Of a stretch of 9,322 bases of DNA, positions 5,692-6,443 are shown one piece after another. The stretch's first letter is position 1, and every line of letters begins with the position of its first letter. This stretch comes from a virus (taxonomy: Duplodnaviria; Heunggongvirae; Uroviricota; Caudoviricetes): the IMG/VR virus record IMGVR_UViG_2574180220_000002; one strand, given 5' to 3'. The translations under genes and the position numbers were made by a program. Below the pieces are notes generated by a model. It worked only from the letters and a program-made list of their open reading frames with translations, ran no database searches and was not told where the DNA came from.

Positions 5692-5916
5692 ATGCAATCA
5701 CCATTACGGAATGTGCGTAAGGCGCACGGATTTACTTTGCAGCATGTTGCTGCTGGCGTTCAGGTCAATCCAGCGACGCTGAGTCGTATTGAAAGACTGG
5801 AACAAATTCCATCTATCGATCTTGCAGAACGTCTGGCCAATTTTTTTAAGGATGAAATCAGCGAAATGCAGATTCTTTATCGTATTTCAGGGATGCTCGT
5901 GCCGAACTGGGTATAA
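5692..5916 (+). CDS. cro: Cro-like XRE-family HTH regulator
   Basis: 74-aa ORF with GGAGG SD. HTH: LRNVRKAHGFTLQHVAAGVQVNPATLSRIE. Divergent from the cI-like gene. The C-terminal tail (from about residue 58) overlaps an out-of-frame HTH-coding segment, so the true C-terminus is uncertain. Confidence 0.7.
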   Translation: MQSPLRNVRKAHGFTLQHVAAGVQVNPATLSRIERLEQIPSIDLAERLANFFKDEISEMQILYRISGMLVPNWV

Positions 5917-5954
5917 CGGCAAAACAAATTGCCGAAGCCACAGGTAAGAAAAAT

Positions 5955-6443
5955 ATGGTTTCCCACTGGTTTGGTGCCAGTCAGTGGCAGTTGCCGAATG
6001 AGGCTGACTATCGGAAGTTACAGGCACTGTTTTCCCGTATAGCGGCAGAGAAGTTTCAGGAACAACAACTGGAACAACCACACCACCAGCTGGTGGCATC
6101 TTATGATTCACTGAATCGTAAATATTCTGAATTGCTGGATGAGTTTAAATCTCTCCGGCGCTATTTCTCCGTATCAGTCTCCGTGCCTTATACCGATGTC
6201 TGGATGCATAAACCCGTTCAGTTCTACCCGGGGAAACATCCGTGTGAGAAACCGGCGGATATGCTCAGGCAAATAATCAATGCCAGTAGTCGACCTGGTG
6301 ATCTGGTTGCTGATTTTTTTATGGGATCCGGTTCCACAATAAAAGCAGCAATGGCGCTGGGGCGTCGGGCCTTAGGTGTTGAGCTTGAGTCAGAGCGGTT
6401 TAACCAGACAGTGAAAGAGATAAACGAGCTGGTGGGGAAATAA
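5955..6443 (+). CDS. Chimeric or truncated ORF: HTH remnant plus C-terminal module of a beta-class N6/N4 DNA methyltransferase lacking the catalytic DPPY region (likely non-functional remnant; resembles yfdM-type MTase fragments)
   Basis: The C-terminus carries [12 protein letters not shown] (HPTxKP-like) and DFFMGSGST (FxGxG AdoMet motif I) followed by [10 protein letters not shown], which is the C-terminal half of ParB-less beta-class MTases. No DPPY is present anywhere in the ORF. The same frame is open from 5856 and encodes the second half of an XRE HTH ([39 protein letters not shown]) with no start codon before ATG 5955. AGGT lies 9 nt upstream of 5955. Confidence 0.55.

Follow-up and report, generated by a model that had tools for sequence, protein, structure and literature searches.

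A probable deletion scar joins cro to the 3′-end of a phage methyltransferase gene in a defective lambdoid prophage

In the stretch of DNA analysed here (9,322 bp, hereafter the window), a cro ORF that ends at 5916 overlaps, in another frame, an ORF that closes with the motifs of a β-class N6/N4 DNA methyltransferase (MTase). The question posed by this locus is how the two came to be joined and what, if anything, the joined parts still do. The initial annotation proposed that a second XRE helix-turn-helix (HTH) regulator, put out of frame by a 1-nt indel near 5880-5890, overlaps the end of the cro ORF and has been joined by deletion to a methylase gene that had lost its 5′-region and was most likely dead. 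The reading frames are as it described them. The cro ORF is in frame 1 and the downstream ORF in frame 0, overlapping out of phase, and the downstream frame is open from 5856 (a TGA occupies 5853-5855) to a stop at 6441-6443, with its first ATG at 5955, giving a 162-aa ORF at 5955-6443 (+ strand).

Alignment with intact relatives placed the endpoints of a deletion at 5878-5881 and revealed no indel. In megablast searches of 5,426 complete E. coli genomes, the match on the cI/cro side, with 99.6% identity to intact lambdoid prophages, ended at 5881, and the match on the MTase side began at 5878, inside a gene annotated as ‘DNA-methyltransferase’, and continued with 100% identity past the 3′-end of this gene. 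In a base-by-base three-way comparison, the window follows its cro-side parent, E. coli AR437 (L002), as far as 5881 and its MTase-side parent, E. coli 5CRE51 (L001), from 5878 onwards, and the TATC at 5878-5881 (junction 1) is a 4-bp microhomology common to the two parental sequences. From 5878 to 6541 there are no mismatches to the intact MTase allele. Window base 5878 corresponds to nucleotide 488 of the intact MTase coding sequence, the second base of codon 163, and at junction 1 cro codon 63 runs into MTase codon 163 in phase 1. The frame offset between cro and the MTase is therefore set by the deletion endpoints, rather than by an indel.

The likely extent of the loss is apparent from E. 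coli EC190486, in which the same chromosomal site is occupied by a full-length prophage, with the two breakpoints 7,990 bp apart. The left arm of this prophage, with genes for an AAA-ATPase and Dam together with intE, xisE, yfdR, yfdQ, yfdP, cI and cro, is 98.8% identical to window positions 1-5881, and its MTase allele (95.9%) has TTTC, not TATC, at the breakpoint. Relative to EC190486, the window lacks the 3′-end of cro, ymfL, a DUF4222 gene, a gene encoding an O-like HTH protein, yfdN, a LexA-family gene, rusA, a KilA-N gene, a DUF968 gene, Q, three hypothetical genes and the first 487 nt of the MTase gene. In our view, the 5878-5881 region very likely marks the scar of a deletion within a defective lambdoid prophage beside icd. 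A single illegitimate-recombination event, using or leaving the 4-bp TATC microhomology, would have cut out ~8 kb and, by the same event, fused cro codon 63 to the second base of codon 163 of a late-region phage MTase gene. The 3′-end of cro, ymfL, the replication and nin-type genes, the Q antiterminator and the 5′-part of the MTase gene, including motif IV (DPPY), would have been lost with the excised DNA. The cro-to-MTase scar is textbook prophage decay. That a 5′-deleted methylase gene had been joined by deletion to upstream sequence, as first suggested, is confirmed by the alignment to the intact parents.

On the upstream side of the scar, the ORF at 5692-5916 (+ strand) is a chimera of 74 aa. 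When aligned to the 86-aa Cro of AR437, it retains 63 of the 86 native residues, followed by 11 out-of-frame codons provided by MTase DNA (RISGMLVPNWV) and then a chance stop. The cro gene is thus itself truncated, and in the intact homologues it does not end at 5916. The chimeric Cro keeps an HTH_3 match above threshold (38.3 bits, residues 5-52) and, with this domain intact, may or may not retain DNA binding. Its 90% cluster also holds YmfL proteins; the listed YmfL members have no resemblance to Cro, and this grouping looks like a clustering quirk. The chimeric ORF is divergent from an apparently intact gene (4902-5594, - strand) that encodes a cI-like repressor of 230 aa with an XRE HTH and an S24 peptidase (Pfam HTH_26, HTH_3 and Peptidase_S24). 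This gene has 99.6% DNA identity to intact prophages, in which it is annotated as an XRE family regulator. The region between the divergent genes (5595-5691) is, from its position, the putative cI/cro control region, with PRM, PR and operators presumably located there, and it gave one sigma-70-like match, on the minus strand from 5685 to 5658.

The intact MTase of 5CRE51 (WP_000799656.1) has 350 aa, with TDPPYF at residues 34-39 (DPPY at 35-38), and is encoded between Q and essD. Its position is always in the late region, with Q on one side and the holin gene on the other. Of the 5426 complete E. coli genomes, 1158 have ≥80% of the gene, and it also occurs in the sequenced phages Ayreon (100% identity), mEp460, cdtI and SfV (orf48), with more distant versions in Stx2c phages. 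The protein aligns to solved β-class amino-MTases in two blocks, residues 9-115 and 282-340, with a family-specific insert between them. An AlphaFold model of P0037, a full-length homologue 73% identical to the window fragment, has a mean pLDDT of 72, and its best Foldseek matches are M.BceJIV, CcrM and M.RsrI (E ~1e-11). The intact parent has the same motif order, IV, insert and then X/I, as M.BceJIV (8URK, 9C3U), M.RsrI (1EG2), CcrM (6PBD) and M.MboIIA (1G60) but, unlike these enzymes, its family has a ~165-residue helical insert between the lobes that holds an HTH-like module. A Stx-prophage methyltransferase that acts on 16S rRNA was considered as a published function for the lambdoid late-region MTase and was ruled out, as it is an MT-A70 enzyme with a DPPW motif (PMC10810198) and MT-A70 is another family.

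The downstream side of the scar is the 3′-remnant of this β-class MTase gene (5878-6443, + strand; codons 163-350 of 350), 100% identical to the sequence of WP_000799656.1 in 5CRE51. As detected by tblastn, MTase residues 163-350 map to 5877-6440, and no match to the N-terminal 162 aa was found in the window. Compared with the late-region MTase genes of Ayreon, mEp460, cdtI and SfV, the remnant is followed by the same terminator and the same start of essD, but codons 1-162, which encode DPPY and the whole N-terminal lobe, are gone and the join to cro is out of frame. Unlike the solved β-class MTases, the window keeps the C-terminal block and, before it, no more than the distal part of the insert. 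A motif search of the ORF located the HPxEKP and FxGSGST motifs previously noted, as HPCEKP (motif X) at 6237-6254 and FMGSGST (motif I) at 6318-6338, both of which align to the same motifs of M.BceJIV. It also bore out the loss of DPPY. No catalytic motif IV, (D/N/S)PP(Y/F/W), was found within 5856-6443, and the sole DPPY in the window, at 580, is inside an unrelated D12 Dam gene (1-861). The remnant matches PF01555 with 84.9 bits (cut-off 26.7 bits) yet covers only positions 132-220 of the 221 in the profile, and a full-length PF01555 match with both Rossmann-type lobes was not obtained from it. In the AlphaFold model of P0037, ~3 of the 7 core strands are in the retained part.

Having lost the catalytic motif and over half of its Rossmann-type core, the remnant is predicted to be incapable of methylation, which agrees with the earlier view that it is most likely dead; the N-terminal lobe is absent as well. 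A fragment with only 3 of the 7 core strands of the model would probably not adopt the MTase fold. In L003 and L004 the remnant has been called as a gene, either as the 162-aa ORF that starts at 5955 or as 150 aa from TTG 5991, and the deposited entries for the two calls are named ‘site-specific DNA-methyltransferase’ or ‘DNA methylase family protein’. The ATG at 5955 is the internal Met189 of the intact MTase, no native start codon being kept, and the only Shine-Dalgarno-like element that precedes it is a weak AGG 10 nt upstream. A terminator-like hairpin followed by a T-run at 6450-6476 (+ strand), reported by the terminator scan as GGCCACGTCAGGTGGCC then TTTTTATTTC, was inherited with the MTase 3′-end, and there is an annotated ‘terminator’ feature under the matching stretch in phage Ayreon. 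No Rfam families were found in 5550-6560.

Functionally, the remnant is most likely an inert pseudogene fragment. Its 100% identity to the intact allele means that divergence has had no time to set in, and PR, apparently the sole route for transcription of the remnant, should be kept off by the intact S24-type repressor. Some translation from ATG 5955 may occur after SOS derepression, given the weak AGG. It is very improbable that the remnant, expressed from Met189, has taken on a new function, such as binding AdoMet or DNA or interfering, as a dominant-negative partner, with intact paralogous MTases. The 162-aa ORF is intact, with an HTH-like helix 3, a helical region, the FxGSG lobe and a terminator behind it, and short ORFs that begin at the same Met exist elsewhere, for example P0054 (160 aa) and P0060 (161 aa), but the identity to the intact allele gives no sign of adaptation, the retained part has only the 3 core strands, the Shine-Dalgarno signal is weak, the ORF is downstream of a repressed PR and the junction is rare. 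The route by which such a product would be made, with SOS cleavage of the cI-like repressor leading to PR read-through of the truncated cro and so to a 162-aa exapted binder or MTase poison, has a comparably small probability. The other short or fused forms also vary in breakpoint and partner, which fits independent random deletions rather than a family. Complete fusions that join differing points of the MTase C-terminal half to other proteins occur elsewhere in the Enterobacteriaceae, with YmfL in Citrobacter (P0101), with a P22-Cro-like protein (P0118), with an HTH_36 replication protein (P0070) and with an integrase arm-domain (P0062), in a sample biased toward such cases by the use of the MTase C-terminal half as the search query. 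Early-region-to-MTase deletions thus appear to recur in decaying prophages. A natural family of short proteins without DPPY, which would have counted against the initial annotation, was also sought and rejected. Most of the short matches carry a ‘partial’ label from their sources, are on short contigs and look like contig-end fragments, the complete forms differ in their breakpoints and N-terminal partners, and no coherent family was found.

The out-of-frame segment first read as a second XRE HTH (5889-5996, + strand) is residues 167-202 of the MTase, as established by residue mapping, and is delineated further by invariant columns, by helices in the P0037 model and by a weak HTH_3 match. Its resemblance to an HTH is probably real, though below the family threshold. 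Against a cut-off of 23 bits, HTH_3 scored 15.7 bits (E=0.015) on the window frame and 14.3 bits on the intact MTase, and an alignment of 27 rows (26 full-length relatives and the window fragment) has weak HTH_3 matches in 9 rows (best E 9e-4) and weak Pou matches in 8. In the P0037 model, the HTH-like peptide begins with the last part of a long helix (136-162), after which come a short turn, a helix (166-173) and a short helix (180-183); the three helices follow one another as expected. The peptide also contains many of the columns that are invariant in the 27-row alignment, namely Y154, F155, A158, L162, M178, H181, W182, F183, Q187, W188, L190 and P191. As in the XRE/Cro-C1 HTH (PF01381), there is a pattern of helix, G-[IV]-[ST], helix, turn and helix but, unlike XRE/Cro-C1 regulators, the segment is below the Pfam cut-off, is an internal module of an enzyme rather than a stand-alone protein and, in the window, lacks any start codon before its third helix. 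It is kept in full-length homologues as far as Serratia, and sits between the upstream DPPY lobe and the downstream FxGSG lobe of one contiguous 350-aa protein. An independent gene for the segment, with its own start and stop, was not found in the intact relatives, which have a single 350-aa MTase ORF.

The remaining account of the segment is the one originally offered, two decayed genes side by side, with an XRE regulator frameshifted by 1 nt near 5880-5890 and fused by a deletion to a 5′-deleted methylase, and this is refuted by the intact MTase gene and the base-by-base comparison. The likeness to XRE helices and the weak HTH_3 and Pou matches are consistent with such a regulator, and a 1-nt insertion would, arithmetically, fuse the frames, but the match of each flank to its parent is exact as far as the 4-bp overlap and so leaves no room for an indel. 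The segment is, furthermore, invariant within the MTase family, >1000 genomes and several phages have it joined without interruption to the DPPY lobe in a single 350-aa ORF, and the gene behind cro in intact prophages is ymfL, not an XRE gene of such sequence. From the original proposal, the deletion and the truncated methylase stand, and the XRE-like resemblance survives as a property of MTase residues 167-202; the second regulator gene and the frameshift do not. In the Ayreon/mEp460/SfV orf48 MTase family (L001 5514-6566), residues ~136-215 form a conserved, probably XRE-like module in which SHWF and QWQLP are among the invariant residues. Plausibly, the HTH-like module serves as a target-recognition element of the MTase.

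The deletion at junction 1 is accompanied by at least two more, from the 5′-part of essD into J and from J to stf. The first 10 codons of the holin gene essD (6511-6541, + strand), which in L001 begins 68 nt after the MTase gene, are identical to L001 up to 6541, and a match to the tail-tip gene J starts at 6539. The segment from 6539 to 7014 (+ strand) is an internal piece of J, with 95% identity to gpJ over that span only and with the Pfam domains Ig_J and Ig_J_second. The essD and J pieces are fused in frame with a 3-bp overlap at 6539-6541 (junction 2), forming a 184-aa ORF (6511-7065) with Ig_J domains, and all of the lysis, packaging and head genes and most of the tail genes are missing between them. 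Junction 2 was placed by using L001 and the J search; EC190486 has a lambda-type holin, not essD. At the third boundary, similarity to gpJ ends at 7014, a position that is presumably mid-gene in lambda J, and a stf-like tail-fibre ORF begins at 7026, with tfa also present there, so that the 3′-end of J has been lost.

With int, xis, cI and the truncated cro present, internal boundaries at 5878-5881, 6539-6541 and ~7014, and all of the missing modules present in EC190486, the element can be classified as a defective (cryptic) lambdoid prophage, a predicted fixed and non-inducible remnant beside icd. The E. coli elements e14, DLP12, Rac and Qin are deletion-degraded lambdoid prophages, and the e14 attachment site is in icd. 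Like these cryptic prophages, the element has kept integrase, excisionase (with genes annotated as intE and xisE), repressor and tail-fibre genes and has lost replication, Q, lysis and head genes by internal deletions that left fused fragments. Unlike these prophages, its gene content and breakpoints are lineage-specific.

Several other features of the element were observed. Between icd and the integrase gene, the D12-class Dam methylase gene (286 aa, window 1-861) adjoins an AAA_15/AAA_21 ATPase gene (L003 531-3170); the pair is also present in the full-length relative in EC190486 and looks like prophage-end cargo, possibly related to defence. Downstream of the window, past the tail-fibre genes, L003 12133-16128 encodes a UvrD-like helicase, an unannotated 212-aa protein and an AbiTii-domain protein, and these genes may be anti-phage cargo kept by the prophage remnant. 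Rfam IS009 (RF02111) was matched with 229.5 bits at 9030-9228 (+ strand), inside the tail-fibre assembly gene (8687-9322). At 3817-4365 (- strand) there is a 182-aa ORF without a Pfam match, where gene callers instead place a 120-aa YfdP, and the ~500 bp at 4400-4900, between this ORF and the repressor gene, are apparently non-coding.

An exact-protein look-up found the junction-specific chimeric Cro on at least 12 contigs in NCBI, Logan (read-run) and ENA assemblies, with 8 of 12 contigs in the 50-200 kb class. This protein, like the 162-aa and 150-aa MTase calls, has been deposited under several GenBank accessions. Over its 9,322 bp, the window is base-identical to L003 2310-11631, part of JNPM01000023.1 (GCA_000703685.1). 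The two halves were not found joined in any of the 5,426 complete RefSeq E. coli genomes, and the population frequency of the junction is known from draft assemblies alone. That absence, and the prophage repeats that are a classic source of misassembly, could point to an assembly chimera or sequencing error at junction 1, but this is hardly credible given the recurrence on 12 contigs across assemblies made independently in NCBI, Logan and ENA, the several GenBank deposits, one identical to the window at every base, and the two further deletion junctions in the same element, which are consistent with stepwise decay.

The 74-aa ‘HTH regulator’ and the 150- or 162-aa ‘DNA methylase family protein’ are, in this interpretation as a deletion scar, the two sides of one event. 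Their annotation should be corrected, flagging the first as a chimeric or truncated cro and the second as an MTase pseudogene, a change of little importance beyond annotation. The more general lesson is that an out-of-frame join of two genes by deletion can mimic an additional, frameshifted gene. A mildly useful by-product is the recognition that the catalytic lobes of this widespread phage MTase family are separated by an insert with a conserved HTH, probably XRE-like, which may be a target-recognition element.
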